From Phycisphaerales bacterium (GTDB lineage: Bacteria; Planctomycetota; Phycisphaerae; WQYP01), in contig DAIDJN010000063.1 of assembly GCA_027451365.1 (NCBI GenBank), forward strand, positions 70,979 to 134,978: a DNA stretch of 64,000 nt. The letters are read 5' to 3'. Shown here piece by piece: positions 21,724 through 58,412 of this stretch. The notes under the pieces were generated by a model, which had not been told where the DNA came from, searched no databases, and was given only the letters and a program-made list of their open reading frames with translations. The position numbers and the translations under genes are program-made. How positions within the stretch are numbered: the first letter of the stretch is position 1; each line of letters begins with the position of its first letter.

Positions 21724-21810
21724 GGAGAGATGTCCGAGTGGCTTAAGGAGCACGATTGGAAGTCGTGTGTGGGGGAAACCTCACCGTGGGTTCGAATCCC
21801 ACTCTCTCCG
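21724..21810 (+). tRNA. tRNA-Ser(GGA)
   Basis: GGAGAGA/TCTCTCC acceptor stem, anticodon arm CACGA-TTGGAAG-TCGTG, long variable arm, GGTTCGAATCC; CCA not encoded. TTGACG-N17-TAGTCT promoter at 21666-21694. Confidence 0.97.
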
Positions 21811-30224: not shown

Positions 30225-30395
30225 TGCATGCTCTCCGTTTGGCGGCGGGGAAATTTTACTCCAGGCATTATAGTTCGCCACCTCGTGCTTGGCTGCGACC
30301 AGCGAAAAATGATCCGTCCGGTATGGAAAGCAATCTTGGACAACAGCAAGGCGGCGGACTGGCAACTGGGCCGGGGAATCGTATAATCGGTGGAT

Positions 30396-30490
30396 GTTCG
30401 CTAGGGGTGTCCATTGGCCCGCAAAGGCCCGGACTGAGAATAAACCCTCCGAACCTGACCCGGGTTGTACCGGCGTAGGGAATGCGATTC
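30396..30490 (+). promoter_or_regulatory. TPP riboswitch
   Basis: AGGGGTG...CTGAGA..AAACCC..GAACCTGA..CGGGTT.TACCGGCGTAGGGAA upstream of thiC; TATAAT at 30382-30387. Confidence 0.93.
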
Positions 30491-30617
30491 ACCGCCATTT
30501 GTTCTGGCGGCAGGTCTTCTGACACTTCTTTACGCGGAATAACCGATTTATTGCGGTTCCAGCGGCTACAATATATCCGCGGGGTAATCGCTGTTGTCGC
30601 GAATACAGGAGTCTTCC

Positions 30618-50614: not shown

Positions 50615-51469
50615 ATGCAATCATCCTCTGTACGTGTTCTTCTGCCCCGAACGGCCGGCACCAATTGCGACCAGGAACTTGCCTGGGCGTTTGAACAGGC
50701 CGGTGCCGCGGTGACCAAACTTCACATCAACCGCCTGATGAACGCCCCCGATCAGTTGCGTCACTATCACATACTGGCATTGGCTGGTGGCTTTTCCTAC
50801 GGCGACGACATAGCCAGCGGAAAGATTTTCGCCAACCAGCTTGTGCATCATCTGAAAAATCCGCTGGAACAATGGGTACGGGATGGAAAGCTGATTATCG
50901 GCATCTGCAATGGCTTTCAAATTCTGGTCAAGGCGGGGCTGCTGCCCGGCCCGCTGCCGCAGTTTGCGCCAGAAGACACCCGCACCGCCACGCTTACCCA
51001 CAATTCGCACGCCCGCTTTGAGGACCGCTGGGTACGGCTTAAAACCTTTTCGAGTCTCTGCAAATGGATTCGGCCCGGCCAGTTGCTCCGCCTGCCAGTG
51101 GCCCATGGCGAAGGCCGCTTTATGGTTCGTTCGCCGGAAGTGCTTGCGGCCCTGCAGCAAAACGATCAGATAGTCTTGCGATATGTCGACGCAGGTGGCC
51201 AGGCGACCAGCGATTTTCCGGACAATCCCAACGGCAGCACCGACGCGATTGCCGGCATTTGCGATATCACCGGTCGTGTACTGGGCCTGATGCCACACCC
51301 CGAACGCTTTACCCAAATGCACCAGTCACCAGACTGGACGCGCGCCGACCAGACCGCCGATGGCATGCAAATTTTCCGGAACGCTGTTGATTTTGTGCAC
51401 GCGTCGCAATCGCTTGACATACAATCTTCAGAGAGCCTTCCGGTGGAACCGGCTGCCGCCGCCGGCTGA
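50615..51469 (+). CDS. purQ: phosphoribosylformylglycinamidine synthase subunit PurQ
   Basis: GTNCD, GGFSYGD, GICNGFQ, AHGEG, NPNGS, GLMPHPER. Confidence 0.95.
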   Translation: MQSSSVRVLLPRTAGTNCDQELAWAFEQAGAAVTKLHINRLMNAPDQLRHYHILALAGGFSYGDDIASGKIFANQLVHHLKNPLEQWVRDGKLIIGICNGFQILVKAGLLPGPLPQFAPEDTRTATLTHNSHARFEDRWVRLKTFSSLCKWIRPGQLLRLPVAHGEGRFMVRSPEVLAALQQNDQIVLRYVDAGGQATSDFPDNPNGSTDAIAGICDITGRVLGLMPHPERFTQMHQSPDWTRADQTADGMQIFRNAVDFVHASQSLDIQSSESLPVEPAAAAG

Positions 51470-51522
51470 TGCGGCCACATCCGCGCTGGTCAACACCGAA
51501 TCCAATACAAGGACCCACACGG

Positions 51523-53364
51523 ATGATACACGGCACGGAAGCTATCAGTCATAAAAAGCGGCACTGGATTCTGCCGCAGGCCATGCCGCGGGCCGCGGAC
51601 GTTGCGGCAACAGCCTGCGCGCTGGCCTGTCATCCGTTGGTCGCCAGACTGCTGCTGACGCGGCAGATCACAGACCTGGCGGAAGCCCGGGAATTTATTC
51701 ATCCGCAATTCAAAAATCTTCACCCTCCGGAAACGATTCCTGGCATGACCGCGGCTGCGGAACGTATCGCGGCGGCAATTCACCAGCGCGAGAAAATGAC
51801 CATTTATGGTGATTACGATGTGGACGGCATCACCGGAACGGCGATGCTGTGGCGACTGCTTAAAATGGCCGGCGCTGATTTTGATGTTTACATTCCGCAC
51901 CGTGTGGATGAAGGCTATGGAATTTCCTGTAAGGCTCTCCAGCAACTGGCTCAAAAAGGCACCCAACTGCTGGTGAGCGTAGACTGCGGCATTACTGCGA
52001 TTGAACCCATTGCCCAGGCCCGCCGTGCCGGCATGGATGTTGTGGTGACCGATCATCATGAAATGGGCGACACGCTGCCCGAGGCCAATGTGCTGGTTCA
52101 TCCCGGCCTGGATTCCACCGGGCAGGCGAACCGGCATCTGTGCGGAGCGGGTGTGGCATATAAACTGGCATGGGCCATTGGTGCGCGACTTTGCAATTCG
52201 CCACGGCTTACCGGCGGGTATCGGAGCCTGATGGTGGAATTTTCAGCACTGGTGGCTCTGGCCACCATCGCCGATGTGGTTCCGCTGACCGGGGAAAACC
52301 GCTTGCTGGCGCGGTTCGGCCTGGCGCAACTGCCGCGTTCGTCGCTGGTCGGCATTCAGGCGCTGATTTCGGCCGCCGGTCTGACGAACAAAACAATTGA
52401 TGGCACGGCCGTGGGCTTTCTGCTGGCACCGCGGCTTAATGCGGCCGGTCGAATGGATCACGCCTCGGAAGCGGTTGAACTTTTAACCACAGATGATGCA
52501 GCCCGCGCAACTGAACTTGCGGATTATCTGGAAGAGCAGAATATGGATCGCCAGGGCACCGAACGCAAAATTACCGCCGCTGCGCTAAAAATGGCGCGCG
52601 AACCGCGGGATATGCCACCCGCCATCGTGTTGTGCAGCCAGGACTGGCACGCCGGCGTGGTGGGCATCGTCGCTTCACGCCTGGTGGACGCTTTCAATCG
52701 CCCGACGTTTATCCTCTCGCAGGATGGGGCGCAAGCCGCCGGGTCTGGACGCAGCATTAAGGGCATTCCACTGCATGAAGCCATTGAATTCTGCCGCGAT
52801 CTTCTGATCAGCGGTGGTGGTCATGCCGCTGCAGGCGGCGTTCGGCTGGAATCCGGAAAGGTGGAAGCGTTCCGTCAGCGTCTGTGTGAATTTGTCCGCA
52901 ACCACTATCCGCAATTGCAATTCGCCGCCGCACTGGATTTGGATGGCGAACTCACGGAAGCCGATCTGGACCTTCAGGCCGTGCGCGAACTGGAAAACCT
53001 GGCACCGTTCGGCTGCGGCAATCCACGTCCGAAATTTCTGATCGCCGGTGCAAGATTGGCTACCGCGCCCCGTCGCATGGGTGCGGCGGGCGGGCACCTG
53101 CAACTGCAACTTCGCATCGGCACGCAAACCGCACGGGCAGTGGCGTTCCGCATGGGCCTTCTGGAGCCATATCTGCCCGTCGGCCTGGAAATTGACTTGG
53201 TGGTGGAACCACGAATTGACACCTACAAGGGCCGCACACGCCTGGACCTGCACGTTGTGGACCTTCGCAGATCCGATGGCAGATTTCTGGAACCTATTGT
53301 TCAGACAGCCCGCACGGACATCGCGCGCGAAATTACACCCGCCGCATTACATCCCACCGTTTGA
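51523..53364 (+). CDS. recJ: single-stranded-DNA exonuclease RecJ
   Basis: YGDYDVDG, VDCG, TDHH, APRLNAAGR, GSGRS, GGHAAAGG. Alternative start at 51469. Confidence 0.95.
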   Translation: MIHGTEAISHKKRHWILPQAMPRAADVAATACALACHPLVARLLLTRQITDLAEAREFIHPQFKNLHPPETIPGMTAAAERIAAAIHQREKMTIYGDYDVDGITGTAMLWRLLKMAGADFDVYIPHRVDEGYGISCKALQQLAQKGTQLLVSVDCGITAIEPIAQARRAGMDVVVTDHHEMGDTLPEANVLVHPGLDSTGQANRHLCGAGVAYKLAWAIGARLCNSPRLTGGYRSLMVEFSALVALATIADVVPLTGENRLLARFGLAQLPRSSLVGIQALISAAGLTNKTIDGTAVGFLLAPRLNAAGRMDHASEAVELLTTDDAARATELADYLEEQNMDRQGTERKITAAALKMAREPRDMPPAIVLCSQDWHAGVVGIVASRLVDAFNRPTFILSQDGAQAAGSGRSIKGIPLHEAIEFCRDLLISGGGHAAAGGVRLESGKVEAFRQRLCEFVRNHYPQLQFAAALDLDGELTEADLDLQAVRELENLAPFGCGNPRPKFLIAGARLATAPRRMGAAGGHLQLQLRIGTQTARAVAFRMGLLEPYLPVGLEIDLVVEPRIDTYKGRTRLDLHVVDLRRSDGRFLEPIVQTARTDIAREITPAALHPTV

Positions 53365-53766
53365 CCTTTCGCGCCCCAGGCAAATTCCGTCCAACCAATG
53401 CGGAATCTTCATCACACAAATCGATTCGGCGGCAACAAGCGCCAACGGCGCGTTCAAACCTCATCTGGATAAATGGGGCGCTTGGGGCGGTGAACTTATT
53501 TTCAGTCCGCAATCCTGAAATGCGATAGATGTTGTACCCGTCCGCAGACCCCATGCGCGGCGGGCCGCCAGGATCGCGTTATTTGACTATCTCTTAGGCA
53601 GGAACTTCCGCCGCATCCTAATTGTGCGGCAGTCCGAATAATAAAACGCGCGCGAATGGGGGCGGGCCTGTGACAAATATTTTTTGAAAGGGCAAATTTC
53701 ATCGGTTTTAGCTCAATTTTTGTATTCCGTCCGGCGGAGGAAATATTTTTTGAGGTTTTAGTGAAT

Positions 53767-53782
53767 TGGCACGTTAGTTGCA
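53767..53782 (+). promoter_or_regulatory. sigma-54 (-24/-12) promoter
   Basis: TGGCACG-TTAG-TTGCA, exact match to TGGCACG-N4-TTGCW, with AT-rich sequence upstream. Confidence 0.85.
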
Positions 53783-53792
53783 TTATTAGTCT

Positions 53793-54062
53793 GGTGCGAG
53801 CTGAGGCATCGAAGTGAAGATGCGAGAGGCAGACAGAGGCAAGTGTGACTGGGAAGCCAGTCATGGTTGCCGGGAAGACAGGAGCAGAGAAGTCTTCACG
53901 AGCCTCAGCCGTATTGAAAATTCAGGTGCATGGTGCAGACCAAAAAGCTTAAGCACAAATTGGGGGTCTGTGTCTGATTGATCTGCTCCATGCATTTCCC
54001 AAACTCGTTTCCTCCTCCGCCAGGCCGTGTGGATATACCCTCCTCCACACGGCTTTTTTTTT
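53793..54062 (+). ncRNA. candidate sigma-54-dependent small RNA (~270 nt)
   Basis: Bounded by a sigma-54 promoter and a terminator; two long stem domains; CCTCCTCC tracts at the 3' end. Confidence 0.6.
54022..54062 (+). terminator. intrinsic terminator
   Basis: AGGCCGTGTGGA/TCCACACGGCTT hairpin plus T-run. Confidence 0.9.
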
Positions 54063-54314
54063 GCGCGCCGCGAATCGGATTCCCGTCATTCCGCGATTGC
54101 GACCGCGATCGCCCATTGGACACTGCCAATCGCTGATCTGCCAATTGCACTCCGGAATTTAAAATTTTTTCCCTGAAATTGGCATCCGACGCCCAATTCC
54201 TGCGCCGCCGCGTGCCACCTCTGTTACATTCCGCCATCCCCCCGCATAATACCGACATCAGGATATTCCTGCCGCGGAGGCAGACGAACTGTGGATCAAC
54301 TTCAGAGGCGACTT

Positions 54315-57300
54315 ATGCCCGATGTTCTGCCGCCGACAACCGATGATCAGAATATTCCCGCCAGTGCCGCGGCTGCAATTCAGGAAGCGCAACTTGCCGC
54401 GGAAATCCGCCAGGGGCGATCGCGCTTTCTGGCGATGGCCATCGCCTACGCTTTGGGTAATTTTAACGACAACTTCATGAAGCAGTCGGTCAGTCTGCTG
54501 GCTGTTGCCCATCACCATGCCGCGCTTCAGGGCTGGATTTCCACATTTTATACGCTGCCATTTCTGCTTTTTGCCGCCCCGGCGGGCTGGATGGCCGACC
54601 GTTTCAGCCGCCGCAATGTGGTCATTTTTGCCAAAGCCATGGAATTGCTGTTTCTTAGCCTTGGGGCCTGGGCGGTGCTGACGCTCAACTGGCCAGTCAT
54701 TATCACGGTTATTTTTCTGATGGCCTTTCAGGCCAATATATTCGGGCCATCGCTGGTGGGCAGTATTCCGGATATTTATCCAGCCAGTTTCGTAGTCGAG
54801 GCCAATTCGCGACTTAAATCCATCATCACCGCGGCCATACTGGTTGGCGTGATAGTGGCGGGTATCGCCCTTAGCGCCAGTGGCATGGTCCACCTGCCGG
54901 GTTTTCTTCGGCCCGCCGGCCATGGGGCGGCGCACGCATCGGCGGTAACAGCAGGGGGAAAATCCGCAACAGCCGTGCATTCGGTGGTAATACCGAATGG
55001 AGATATATCCCGCGGCAGAGTGGTAGTCGCGGTGATTCTGGTATGTGTCGCGATTGCGGGATTGCTGGTGAGCTTTGGCGTTCCCCGCCGCGCGCCCGCA
55101 AATCCGAAAGCGGCATTTCCCTGGGCGGGTCCGCTGAATTCTGCGTTTGAACTTCATCGCCTCTGGCCGGATCGGCTGCTGCGAACCGCCATCCTCGCGG
55201 ACAGCTATTTCTGGCTGATCGCGGTGTTGCAGGTTCTGGTTATTAATCAGATGGGCATCGCACAGTTTCACCTGACCAAACTTCGCACCAGCTACCTTTC
55301 GCTGGCGGAACTCGTTGGCGTGGTAATGGGTTCACTGGTTGCGGGCAAAATTACCAAGCGCGAAGCCGGACTTTGGGCCAGTGCCCCGGCGGCCGGAGCG
55401 TTGGCGCTGTTTTTAATTGCCATCGGTGCCGCCCCGCTGCTTCCGGCAGATGCCAGACTTGCTTTCTGTGTTTTTGTGCTGGCTGGCGCGGGCGTATCCG
55501 GTGGAATTATGATGGTGCCGCTGGAAAGCTTTTTCCAGGTCCGTCCGGCGGCCGAACACCGCGGCCGGGTGATTGCGGCGGCATGGTTTGTCGGCTATGT
55601 GGGCATTTTATGCGGCAGTCTGCTGTACACGCCGTTAAGCAGCGCATTCAAGCCAACCGCCATATTCATGATCGGCGGCTTTGCCACCATTCCCGTGGCG
55701 CTGTGGATGTCCACCGTTTTCGTTCGCAATCGGCCGGGCATAGCATCCTGGCCGGCACGGGTCTTGTGCCTGAAGGCCCGCTGCATTCTGCCGCTGCGCT
55801 ACCGTGTCAGGGTAAATGGAATTGATGCCGTTGCGCAAAAAGGCCGCAATGGAATTCTTTTTTTGCCCAATCATCCAGCCCTGATTGACCCGGTTATTGT
55901 CACCGCGTGGCTGCATGGCCGCTTCGCCGTGCGTCCGCTGGCGCTGGAAAATCAGATACACAAACCGATTGTCCGGCAAATCGCGGACATTCTGGGCGTA
56001 CTGCCCATCGCCGACGTTTCCAGAGTGGATCGCGAAGCGGCGGACCGCGCCGACGAAGCCATTGGAACCTGCATTGAAGCCCTGCGGCGCGGCGAAAATG
56101 TGCTGCTTTATCCGGCGGGCCGCATTATGCGGTCGCGGGTGGAAAAACTCGGCGCTGTCAGCGGCGCCCATCGGATACTCAGGGAATTGCCGGATATCCG
56201 TGTGGTGCTGGTGCGCACCACCGGCCTGTGGGGCAGCAGTTTCGGCTGGGCGGCCGGCGGCGCGCCGGATCTGGCCAGAGGCCTGCTTGAGCATCTTCCC
56301 GCCCTGCTGGCCAGTGGACTGTTCTTCGCCCCGCGGCGCGCCGTAACCGTGACTCTGGCCGAACCGGCGGATATCCCCCGGACTGCTGATAAATCTACAT
56401 TTAATACATATCTTGATTCGTTTTATAATGCCGATGCGCCCGCCGCCCGCTATATTCCTTACAGCCGGTGGGAAACCGGCAGTCCCCATGACCTGCCCGA
56501 ACCGCGGGCCGCAACCGCCGCCGCCGCGGATGCCGATATTCCCCCCGCCACACGCCAGATCATCCTTGATTATCTGCGCCAGGAAACCGGCGCGGCGGCG
56601 GTGAGTGAGACCCAGCAGCTTGCCGGCGACCTGGGGATGGACAGCCTGGCGGTGACCGACCTGATATTCTGGCTGGAAAAGGAATTCGCCGTGGCCGTAC
56701 CCAATGTCGAAGCGCTGCAATCCGTCGCGGATGTCATGCGGGCGGCCTGTGGAAAGCTATCCGCCGAAGCCTTCGATGTTCGCATCACACCCCCCACTGC
56801 CGCCTGGATGAAGGATTCTTCTGATGAGCGTGTGCAGATTCCCCCCGGTCATACCATTCAGGAAGTGTTTCTGACACAGGCTCTGATGAATCCGGGGCGG
56901 ATCGCCGCCGCCGACCTGCAGCGCGGCCCTCGAACCTATCGCGATCTGCTCACCTCCCTTTTCGCCCTGCGGGGGCCGATATCCAATCTTCCGGGAAATT
57001 ACATTGGCATTCTGCTACCGGCCTCGGTTGCGGTGGATACGGTTTTTCTGGCGGCTCTTTTTTCCGGCAAAACACCCGTGATGATCAACTGGACCGCGGG
57101 CCAGCGGAATATCCGCCACGCCATGGACCTGCTGGGAATTCAGCACATTCTTACGTCTGAACTTCTGCTTCAGCGGCTGGCCGGCCAGGGTATTGACCTT
57201 TCCGACCTGCGATCCGCCATGGTCCCGCTGGAAAAGCTGGCCCAGAACCTGGGCATGCCCGAGAAACTTTCCGCCGCGATGAATGCCCGGCTTATGCCCC

Positions 57301-58412
57301 GCCGACTGCTGCGAATTCCCGGTCGCGGAAGTCTGGAAGCAAAGCCGAATTCCGTGGCCGTTGTGCTGTTTACCAGCGGTTCAGAATCACTTCCAAAAGC
57401 CGTCGGACTGACCCATGAAAACCTGCTGACCAATATTCATGATGCGCTGGAAAGTTTCCGGATATGCCGGTCTGACCGCTTTCTTGGCATGTTACCGCCG
57501 TTCCATTCCTTCGGCCTTACCGGCACCATGCTCCTTCCGATTCTTTCCGGTGTGCGGGTGGTGCATTACCCGAATCCGAATGATGTCACCACGCTGGCAA
57601 AACTGATTGCGGCATGGCGGGTTTCCATTCTGCTGGGCACGCCTACTTTTGTATCCAACATCATGCGGGCGGCCGGAGATGCGGATATGTCCGCAGTGCG
57701 GCTGTGCGTGACCGGCGCGGAAAAATGCCCCCCCGCGGTATATGACTTGCTCCGGAGCCGCTGCAAAAAGGCCAATATCCTGGAGGGTTATGGCATTACC
57801 GAATGCTCGCCCTTTGTTTCAGTTGTCCGACAGGAAAATCCGATGCCTGGAACCATTGGCCGTGCATTGCCTTCGGTAGAATGTCAGATTCTGGATATTG
57901 ATACCAATCAGCCCTGTCCGCCGGGCCGCACCGGCATGTTGCTGGTGCGTGGACCGAGCATTTTTCCCGGCTACCTGAACTATCAGGGTGCATCGCCATT
58001 TGTTCAATGGAACGGTCAGACCTGGTACAAAACCGGAGATCTGGTGGCCATGGACGCACAGGGAAACATGACATTTATGGGTCGACTGAAACGGTTTGTG
58101 AAAATCGGCGGAGAAATGGTCTCCCTTCCGGCCATTGAAGAAGTGCTGACAGCCCGGTTCCCCGCCGCCGCGGAGGCCGGTCCGGGAATTGCCGTCTTGC
58201 CCACGGCGGATGAGGACCATCCGGAACTGGTGCTGTTTACCACGCAGCAAATAGATCGTGCCGCGGCCAACGAAGCGATCCGTCAGGCCGGTCTCTCCGG
58301 TCTGCATAATGTGCGCATGATTCGCCAGATAAGTGCTATGCCCCTGTTGGGCACCGGCAAAACCGATTACCGCGCGCTGACCGAATTGCTGAAAACCAGC
58401 GGACCGGAATAA
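54315..58412 (+). CDS. Aas-like fusion: MFS lysophospholipid transporter + acyltransferase + acyl carrier domain + AMP-binding ligase
   Basis: LGNFNDN/GWMADRFSRR (LplT-like MFS), PNHPALID and LLYPAG (PlsC), LGMDSL (ACP), FTSGSESLPK, EGYGITE, YKTGD (adenylation). Confidence 0.9.
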   Translation: MPDVLPPTTDDQNIPASAAAAIQEAQLAAEIRQGRSRFLAMAIAYALGNFNDNFMKQSVSLLAVAHHHAALQGWISTFYTLPFLLFAAPAGWMADRFSRRNVVIFAKAMELLFLSLGAWAVLTLNWPVIITVIFLMAFQANIFGPSLVGSIPDIYPASFVVEANSRLKSIITAAILVGVIVAGIALSASGMVHLPGFLRPAGHGAAHASAVTAGGKSATAVHSVVIPNGDISRGRVVVAVILVCVAIAGLLVSFGVPRRAPANPKAAFPWAGPLNSAFELHRLWPDRLLRTAILADSYFWLIAVLQVLVINQMGIAQFHLTKLRTSYLSLAELVGVVMGSLVAGKITKREAGLWASAPAAGALALFLIAIGAAPLLPADARLAFCVFVLAGAGVSGGIMMVPLESFFQVRPAAEHRGRVIAAAWFVGYVGILCGSLLYTPLSSAFKPTAIFMIGGFATIPVALWMSTVFVRNRPGIASWPARVLCLKARCILPLRYRVRVNGIDAVAQKGRNGILFLPNHPALIDPVIVTAWLHGRFAVRPLALENQIHKPIVRQIADILGVLPIADVSRVDREAADRADEAIGTCIEALRRGENVLLYPAGRIMRSRVEKLGAVSGAHRILRELPDIRVVLVRTTGLWGSSFGWAAGGAPDLARGLLEHLPALLASGLFFAPRRAVTVTLAEPADIPRTADKSTFNTYLDSFYNADAPAARYIPYSRWETGSPHDLPEPRAATAAAADADIPPATRQIILDYLRQETGAAAVSETQQLAGDLGMDSLAVTDLIFWLEKEFAVAVPNVEALQSVADVMRAACGKLSAEAFDVRITPPTAAWMKDSSDERVQIPPGHTIQEVFLTQALMNPGRIAAADLQRGPRTYRDLLTSLFALRGPISNLPGNYIGILLPASVAVDTVFLAALFSGKTPVMINWTAGQRNIRHAMDLLGIQHILTSELLLQRLAGQGIDLSDLRSAMVPLEKLAQNLGMPEKLSAAMNARLMPRRLLRIPGRGSLEAKPNSVAVVLFTSGSESLPKAVGLTHENLLTNIHDALESFRICRSDRFLGMLPPFHSFGLTGTMLLPILSGVRVVHYPNPNDVTTLAKLIAAWRVSILLGTPTFVSNIMRAAGDADMSAVRLCVTGAEKCPPAVYDLLRSRCKKANILEGYGITECSPFVSVVRQENPMPGTIGRALPSVECQILDIDTNQPCPPGRTGMLLVRGPSIFPGYLNYQGASPFVQWNGQTWYKTGDLVAMDAQGNMTFMGRLKRFVKIGGEMVSLPAIEEVLTARFPAAAEAGPGIAVLPTADEDHPELVLFTTQQIDRAAANEAIRQAGLSGLHNVRMIRQISAMPLLGTGKTDYRALTELLKTSGPE

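Follow-up and report, generated by a model that had tools for sequence, protein, structure and literature searches.

What is made from a stretch of Phycisphaerales DNA in which a consensus sigma-54 promoter is followed, about 270 nt on, by a strong terminator, with no convincing gene in between? The stretch (53767..54062) lies in a 64,000-nt piece of contig DAIDJN010000063.1, called the window here, from a 93%-complete assembly of a 4.06-Mb genome (the host genome, G000). A preliminary description had read it as an enhancer-controlled regulatory RNA, possibly both a CsrA sponge and a base-pairing repressor. The reading that we favour, with a probability of roughly 0.6, is a nitrogen-starvation sRNA whose seed would repress translation of ammonium-transporter (amt) mRNAs.

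The locus and its predicted RNA

The -24/-12 promoter and every sequence motif named in the preliminary description were recovered; the description had overlooked two enhancer boxes, at 53584 and 53612, and the control region consequently begins about 180 nt before the stretch. The features are as follows.

51469..53364, + strand: recJ (DHH, DHHA1 and RecJ_OB domains), upstream neighbour, outside the element
53584..53600, no strand assigned: enhancer box 1, NtrC-type, 17 bp, 183 nt before the -24 element, 11.6 bits
53612..53628, no strand assigned: enhancer box 2, a weaker partner site 28 nt from box 1, 7.4 bits
53767..53782, + strand: sigma-54 (-24/-12) promoter, TGGCAC at 53767 and TTGC at 53778
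53793..53915, + strand: predicted domain 1, a closed multibranch stem with purine-rich loops
53820..53981, + strand: 53-codon ORF, rejected as a conserved gene
53925..53996, + strand: predicted domain 2, with a 13-bp outer stem
54005..54021, + strand: seed with CCU repeats (anti-Shine-Dalgarno plus flanks), 17 nt, invariant
54024..54062, + strand: intrinsic terminator, 10-bp stem, second CCCUCC tract in the loop, nine U
54291..58412, + strand: MFS-acyltransferase-ACP-AMP-binding fusion, Aas-like, downstream neighbour, outside the element

Transcription is predicted from sigma-54 geometry to start at about 53793. Three RNA runs showed no reads over the element, which counts neither for nor against its transcription. 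The paired motifs of domain 1 are GCTGAGGC (53800) with GCCTCAGC (53902) and GTGAAGA (53814) with TCTTCAC (53893); within it lie a GAAG hairpin with arms GTGACTGG (53845) and CCAGTCAT (53857), GGGAAG at 53851 and 53872, and CAGGAG at 53879. Domain 2 has GGTGCATGG (53925), TCTGC (53982) and CCATGCATT (53988), and it is followed by the anti-Shine-Dalgarno motif TTTCCTCCTCC (54008) and by CCCTCC at 54038. The region folds with z = -5.71, a value that 0/200 shuffles equalled. The terminator has arms at 54024-54033 and 54044-54053, nine T behind them and a stem that covaries among relatives; an automated scanner had left it unlisted because its 10-nt loop exceeds the scanner's 8-nt limit. The strict -24/-12 pattern occurs 11 times in the whole 4.06-Mb genome, and rpoN, whose absence had been named as a reason to abandon the idea, is present together with five sigma-54 activators.

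The stretch also appears to be non-coding. The 53-aa ORF has no Pfam match, other leaders contain nothing like it, and in the same-genus relative L005 the reading frame holds for about 8 codons before it diverges. Neither neighbour belongs to the element: recJ adjoins the RNA at only 2 of the compared loci, and the Aas-like fusion (1373 aa, a lysophospholipid transporter fused to an Aas-like part), which has its own sigma-70-like sites at 54138-54165 and 54223-54250, lies 3' of the RNA in this locus only, among the loci compared. No Rfam family reached its gathering threshold for the element in the window or at nine homologous loci, and the RNA is not described in the texts that we found, although genome-wide sRNA tables in supplements could include it. 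Judged on its sequence and that of its homologues, the locus is almost certainly a real, uncatalogued sRNA gene. Elsewhere in the window are a TPP riboswitch above the Rfam threshold (30393-30499, +) and a tRNA gene with a long variable arm (21724-21810, +). A tRNA-like origin of the CCGCCA end was dropped by eye, the spacing being wrong for a T-arm.

Promoter and enhancer are kept at homologous loci

An exact 21-nt pattern found 119 stretches in GTDB, nearly all labelled Phycisphaerae, Tepidisphaerales, Phycisphaerales or Planctomycetota. Merging duplicates reduced 139 loci to 121 unique ones, of which 115 were kept; six pattern matches that had neither hairpin nor promoter (L027, L039, L063, L073, L124 and L128) were dropped as chance and were excluded before the promoter counts. 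Among loci with sufficient sequence, 82/82 are preceded by a sigma-54 site of more than 12 bits, compared with 0/82 in antisense, 0/75 in downstream and 0/77 in far-upstream controls. The promoter matrix was trained on these same loci; at held-out metagenome loci the promoter was found at 49/51 and its antisense control at 0/51.

De novo motif discovery upstream of the promoters of 74 non-redundant homologues returned TGCnCA-N5-TGnGCA, which fits the 17-bp NtrC box given as TGCACCAnnnTGGTGCA in the available text of PMC8743547. The exact form TGC-N11-GCA occurs in 66/81 proximal but 3/81 far windows, with other spacings at 3-16/81, and at 30/33 of the held-out loci, where N10 gave 3/33. Box 1 stands at the same distance in L065, and many homologues have a second box 28-43 nt away; no clear IHF site was found. 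Together, the kept promoter and boxes support the view of the preliminary description that this is an enhancer-controlled, probably sigma-54-dependent non-coding RNA.

Several variants surround this set. One paralogue class (L024, L028, L038, L043, L055, L062, L066, L071, L084, L087, L093, L122, L123, L132 and L141) has -12 elements of the TTCGCT type and a leader hairpin that is conserved, long and nearly perfect, without an Rfam match in L024 and L087; the hairpin is read in two different frames and is thus non-coding. L187 (G076, family f13) has two tandem modules whose CU-rich seed is related yet distinct, together with a small receiver-like ORF and a sigma-54 promoter; it has no enhancer box. 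L183-L186 (family f7) have a CCUCC tract and terminator hairpin without a sigma-54 promoter, and are possibly distant relatives or convergent modules.

A 60-nt 3' module is the conserved part

Conservation resides in the 3' 60 nt and not in the GGA-containing domain. The module consists of the 17-nt CU-rich seed, a hairpin that usually has a second CCCUCC in its loop, and a U tract. BLAST found the element in 18/24 genomes of the same family, and beyond the closest relatives only its 3' end aligns. The seed is invariant in 51/51 aligned modules, 26 of which were picked with the seed motif itself and 25 by BLAST. In the terminator stem, changes on both sides are seen at 9/10 pairs, 97.6% of cells are paired, and 0/500 shuffles reached as high a covariation; the seed is unpaired in the consensus fold of the module. 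A covariance model detected the module in 16/20 sampled genomes of family f1, the sole family of its order among the genomes compared, and in 16/20 of family f6, which is probably Tepidisphaeraceae (both are Phycisphaerae). Further families gave weak matches only, and 150 other genomes of the phylum sample gave 0 matches at E<=0.001.

Modules occur singly, in tandem arrays of 2-3 spaced about 100-118 nt apart, and in up to four dispersed places per genome. The covariance search that had been suggested for paralogues thus had a divided outcome: homologues lie behind sigma-54 promoters in relatives, but the host genome has no paralogue detectable by blastn, nhmmer or the covariance model (next match, E = 0.08). 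Among virus sequences, an IMG/VR contig (L297:940-1030, -) holds the exact seed in a structured intergenic region, with a different hairpin behind it and no sigma-54 promoter, and may thus carry a phage version that mimics the host RNA; hairpins are lacking at the three remaining viral seed matches.

Upstream of the module little is kept. Leaders range from 25 to 456 nt and neighbour genes vary among loci. The outer stem of domain 2 is retained in part of f1 (12 sequences), with one compensatory column (CG 6 / UA 6) and several G-U changes, and domain 1 was found only in the closest relative rather than family-wide (2 sequences, 1 compensatory pair). In the minimum-energy fold of the whole RNA the seed is paired to domain 1; the modular fold, which leaves it open, lies 6.3 kcal/mol higher, and the median unpaired probability of the seed over 102 homologues is 0.39. 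Pairing between seed and leader does not exceed that of shuffles (median z +0.4 and +0.65), no conserved anti-seed in the leader rose above shuffles, and the covarying stems belong to the modular, seed-open fold. Co-transcriptional folding or processing may expose the seed; NrsZ is processed into modules, according to the available text of PMC4253122.

The module also follows protein-coding genes

At 14/102 GTDB and 23/49 metagenome loci the leader contains the whole or a part of an ORF for a CBM48/AMPK1_CBM glycogen-binding protein. The protein has about 105 aa, and its ORF ends 13-90 nt before the seed in 12 intact cases; in f6 the module is the 3'UTR of this small CBM48 gene. The arrangement of small CBM48 gene, promoter, box and module was seen at 5/6 f6 loci and 0/24 loci of other families, and a search of 20 f1 genomes did not find the gene. 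At eighteen loci the convergent gene opposite the module is one and the same (lpxK-like by eye); six of these loci have a CBM48 ORF, one a 42-codon remnant and eleven neither. These orthologous f6 loci form a natural series for the interconversion of 3'UTR-derived and stand-alone sRNA genes. The locus in the window has no conserved ORF and so does not count as 3'UTR-derived, as the f6 paralogues do. At L198-L200 (f6), a sigma-54 promoter and strong enhancer box precede an unannotated small protein with two predicted hydrophobic helices, and a diverged module lies in the 3'UTR of its gene.

The RNA probably belongs to a nitrogen regulon

Of 183 promoter-like sites in the host genome, 8 have a box of at least 11 bits (random windows, 1%). 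In the ranking by box, amtB-glnK comes first, a nitrate-type ABC binding-protein gene third and this RNA sixth; the urtA box scores 10.6 bits, and 5 of the 8 sites have no identified nitrogen gene. Among relatives, a sigma-54 site was found at 9/30 amt loci, 7 of the 9 also having a box, compared with 4/116 (none with a box) and 5/50 (one with a box) at two sets of control loci. Promoter and enhancer match those of ammonium-transporter genes, suggesting that the RNA is likely to be on when nitrogen is short and very probably belongs to the nitrogen regulon.

The candidate activator is a conserved GAF-AAA+-HTH protein (G000:C34:82295-83899), present in 18/19 f1 and 9/10 f6 genomes at 63-95% identity. 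A box of at least 10 bits precedes the activator's own gene at 24/31 loci, compared with 4% of genes. The protein is of GAF type without a receiver domain and is closest to the NifA model, below that model's cut-off; the host genome encodes four further sigma-54 activators. Among the best plasmid-collection matches of its HTH, S. meliloti ntrC was the sole named ntrC-type feature, and a PDB search with the HTH gave Fis as best match and did not single out NtrC. PII or 2-oxoglutarate as the signal of the GAF domain would be a guess from NifA-type proteins. A survey of Planctomycetota reports limited NtrB/NtrC conservation in its available text (PMC12316311).

Three further observations were made. 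Strong enhancer boxes (16.7 and 17.1 bits) at G000:C12 about 15255 (+) and at the divergent gene precede a second gene for a nitrate-type binding protein and one that is cysG-like (both named by eye), and the region is likely a nitrate-assimilation cluster. Several f6 GAF-activator genes (L349-L357) show, by eye, a TANNNT hexamer 5-8 nt before the ATG, which suggests leaderless activator mRNAs overlapping the enhancer box. Sigma-54 sites without a nitrogen box (G000:C42 56366, C35 29023, C11 3759 and C58 63524) stand before rpoN itself and groEL-, dnaK- and hsp20-like genes (by eye).

Seed complementarity points to amt mRNAs

The target proposed here, amt, came fourth among the candidates and was picked up by eye: the amt start regions printed out contain 10-nt perfect complements of the seed over Shine-Dalgarno sequence and spacer. 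In the discovery set, perfect complements of at least 8 nt lie in 6/29 amt start regions and of at least 10 nt in 4/29, and 1/150 flank-scrambled seeds did as well as the real one; such scramble counts are not probabilities, because the genomes are related, and start codons were chosen by a ribosome-binding-site score that favours strong Shine-Dalgarno sites. Controls at 8 nt or more gave 4/53 for gdh, 0/24 for glgP and 0/28 for the activator gene, and all 2702 host genes gave 1.0%, with a perfect complement of 10 nt or more at 0% of host start regions. Held-out amt genes gave 7/23 in f6 and 4/15 in f1 (4/200 scrambles each), compared with 1/13 (59/200 scrambles) in families without strong module matches. 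Altogether, 17/67 amt start regions from carrier families reach 8 nt and the remaining 50/67 fall below it. The glnK start regions of the same loci, other families included, have strong Shine-Dalgarno sites and yielded 0/54 matches of at least 7 nt. The amt matches use different registers, some engaging the 5' half of the seed and some its 3' half; repeated selection would be expected to give this pattern, and a single inherited site would not. In the host itself the amtB site is 7 nt long (a heptamer found at 6/2702 start regions; duplex energy rank 133rd of 2702), and a second amt gene has a 6-nt site. We found no paper on sRNA control of amtB mRNA. The anti-Shine-Dalgarno tract probably acts by base pairing, as first proposed, and amt is more likely than not a true target.

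Other candidates were set aside. gdh (glutamate dehydrogenase) was a good match in the host, but its seed match exists only in this genus; glgP (glycogen phosphorylase) was good in the host and not conserved; the only 13-nt complement in the host genome lies inside a coding sequence; and GCGG-type matches at the activator's own start occur in several f1 genomes, not in this one and not above scrambles. Duplex ranking over the host genome gave no outstanding site (atpB/atpZ ranked high in it), and an exact 11-nt complement pattern over 32 genomes found mostly the RNA itself. An unpublished genome (G308) contributed to two tallies only, and none of the conclusions depends on it.

The same RNA might instead have other main targets, carbon-storage or other genes with long Shine-Dalgarno sites, its amt complementarity being secondary or a by-product of strong ribosome-binding sites. 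The position of the f6 module in a CBM48 3'UTR recalls MmgR and carbon storage, the host amtB site is weak, two CCUCC tracts offer possible pairing to the numerous GGAG-type sites (present in 33% of host start regions), and the whole-genome screen covered one genome. We nonetheless consider this unlikely: the glgP and gdh sites are not conserved, the seed flanks improve amt matching in three sets and add nothing for strong-Shine-Dalgarno genes of the host (109/150 scrambles as good), and glnK, with its strong sites, lacks long matches.

Probably a base-pairing regulator rather than a decoy, sponge or bare terminator

An invariant 17-mer spanning two orders, tandem and dispersed copies, and the lack of any perfect 10-nt complement at host start regions could also describe a protein decoy, in which a KH-domain or ribosomal protein recognizes the anti-Shine-Dalgarno sequence and extra copies raise the dose. 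Neither Hfq nor ProQ was found in the 93%-complete host genome, which fits a decoy as well. Such a decoy seems improbable given that complementarity is specific to amt over glnK, that no candidate protein emerged, and that the multi-copy anti-Shine-Dalgarno modules of NfeR1 are base-pairing regulators in the available literature.

Titration of CsrA, as sole or second function, was the half of the preliminary proposal that was not supported. The host has two csrA genes, one on C59 and one directly behind fliW (fliW-csrA at G000:C34:8302-8990, -), an arrangement for which protein antagonism has been suggested in Planctomycetes (PMC4682653, available text). One CAGGAG is retained in the closest relative and GGAGG occurs in domain 2 of several f1 members; CsrA can, moreover, aid sRNA-mRNA pairing in Bacillus (PMC6546359, available text). 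However, the 211-nt leader in the window has 3 GGA and no ANGGA, compared with 13-22 sites in CsrB/C as given in the available sources, and CsrB/RsmZ-type sponges have many exposed, conserved GGA/ANGGA sites, which this RNA does not. Across 102 homologous leaders GGA is below expectation (370 compared with 414 +/- 18 in shuffles), ANGGA is at expectation (106 compared with 99 +/- 9) and 10 leaders have no GGA at all; the GAAG hairpin (53845-53864) is deleted in the closest relative aligned. With GGA not enriched and a csrA gene beside fliW, a sponge is unsupported and, in our estimate, very improbable.

Least credible is the absence of any trans-acting RNA, the element being only a conserved terminator or the mRNA of the 53-aa peptide: the RNA is predicted from sequence, and the hairpin does face a convergent gene in 18 loci, but the stem changes from locus to locus and the unpaired 17-mer ahead of it stays the same, promoter and enhancer persist through changing leaders and neighbours, and the peptide is not conserved.

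Comparison with known RNAs

The RNA has the marks of a nitrogen-regulated sigma-54 sRNA, namely a conserved -24/-12 promoter in a genome with rpoN and an enhancer common to nitrogen-assimilation genes, and the available texts on such RNAs place it as follows. NrsZ of Pseudomonas aeruginosa is NtrBC/RpoN-dependent and nitrogen-induced, has repeated modules and spacer hairpins, and needs only one short module; it differs in presenting ACAGGCAG in the loops of repeated stem-loops and in activating rhlA (PMC4253122), whereas here an anti-Shine-Dalgarno seed precedes the terminator, repression is predicted, and the NrsZ loop motif is absent from the module. GlnZ of Enterobacteriaceae, whose repression of glnP is the closest precedent, is nitrogen-induced, comes from a 3'UTR and acts near the Shine-Dalgarno site in negative feedback, but derives from glnA and needs Hfq and RNase E (PMC9731577). 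Most loci here are without an ORF, and where a parent gene exists its product is a small CBM48 protein or a two-helix membrane protein; Hfq was not found, and amt is the target predicted.

Cuckoo (alpha-r14) RNAs (CcsR1-4 and NfeR1; RF02344) share redundant anti-Shine-Dalgarno modules with variable stems and copy number, sometimes lie behind a small gene, and include NfeR1, which acts in nitrogen control. They are alphaproteobacterial, with 2-4 adjacent hairpins whose loops display CCUCCUCCC, and the NfeR1 promoter, at which NtrC acts as a repressor, has no sigma-54 signature (PMC4615179, PMC10746234). Here the main tract, which has GCC at its end, is unpaired and precedes the terminator, and the loop holds a shorter, variable tract. 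The RNA in the window scores 15 bits against RF02344 (gathering cut-off, 58.8). MmgR (suhB, RF00519) is likewise a short anti-Shine-Dalgarno RNA, induced by NtrC under nitrogen limitation and concerned with carbon storage, but it is Hfq-dependent, alphaproteobacterial and linked to PHB rather than glycogen (PMC7143759). The RF00519 score is 15.8 bits, below the cut-off of 41. LhrC of Listeria (RF00616), which is under two-component, envelope-stress control, resembles it in the CU-rich tracts of its terminator loop and of a single-stranded linker; the RF00616 score is 21.3 bits (cut-off 110, E = 1). In its predicted workings the RNA is like NrsZ, GlnZ, MmgR and the cuckoo RNAs as the available texts present them, but it qualifies as a member of none of these groups.

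A proposed nitrogen-starvation circuit

Under the favoured reading of amt repression, nitrogen starvation would lead the GAF-AAA+-HTH protein to activate the RNA gene, the sigma-54 promoter and two NtrC-type boxes firing a non-coding RNA of about 270 nt. Its invariant 3' seed would pair with the ribosome-binding site of amt mRNA and lower translation, while the variable 5' part may be a scaffold or may be processed away so that the 60-nt module acts. One activator would then turn on both amtB-glnK and the RNA, an incoherent feed-forward loop in which the RNA would trim AmtB and spare GlnK; other mRNAs with long Shine-Dalgarno sequences are probably also hit.

More tentatively, and at somewhat less than even odds, two orders of Phycisphaerae may share a starvation circuit without NtrBC or Hfq, in which a GAF activator whose DNA-binding head is of NtrC type drives a portable 60-nt module that uncouples amtB from glnK, the module serving as 3'UTR, stand-alone gene or tandem array as the CBM48 gene is gained or lost. 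The analysis provides a candidate nitrogen regulon for Phycisphaerae, comprising activator, DNA box, RNA and target, and the module is carried by the cultured strain Fontivita pretiosa B-254 (L067), which makes this regulon experimentally accessible. If true, it would be an example of an sRNA that controls AmtB and leaves GlnK of the same operon untouched, apparently without Hfq or ProQ.
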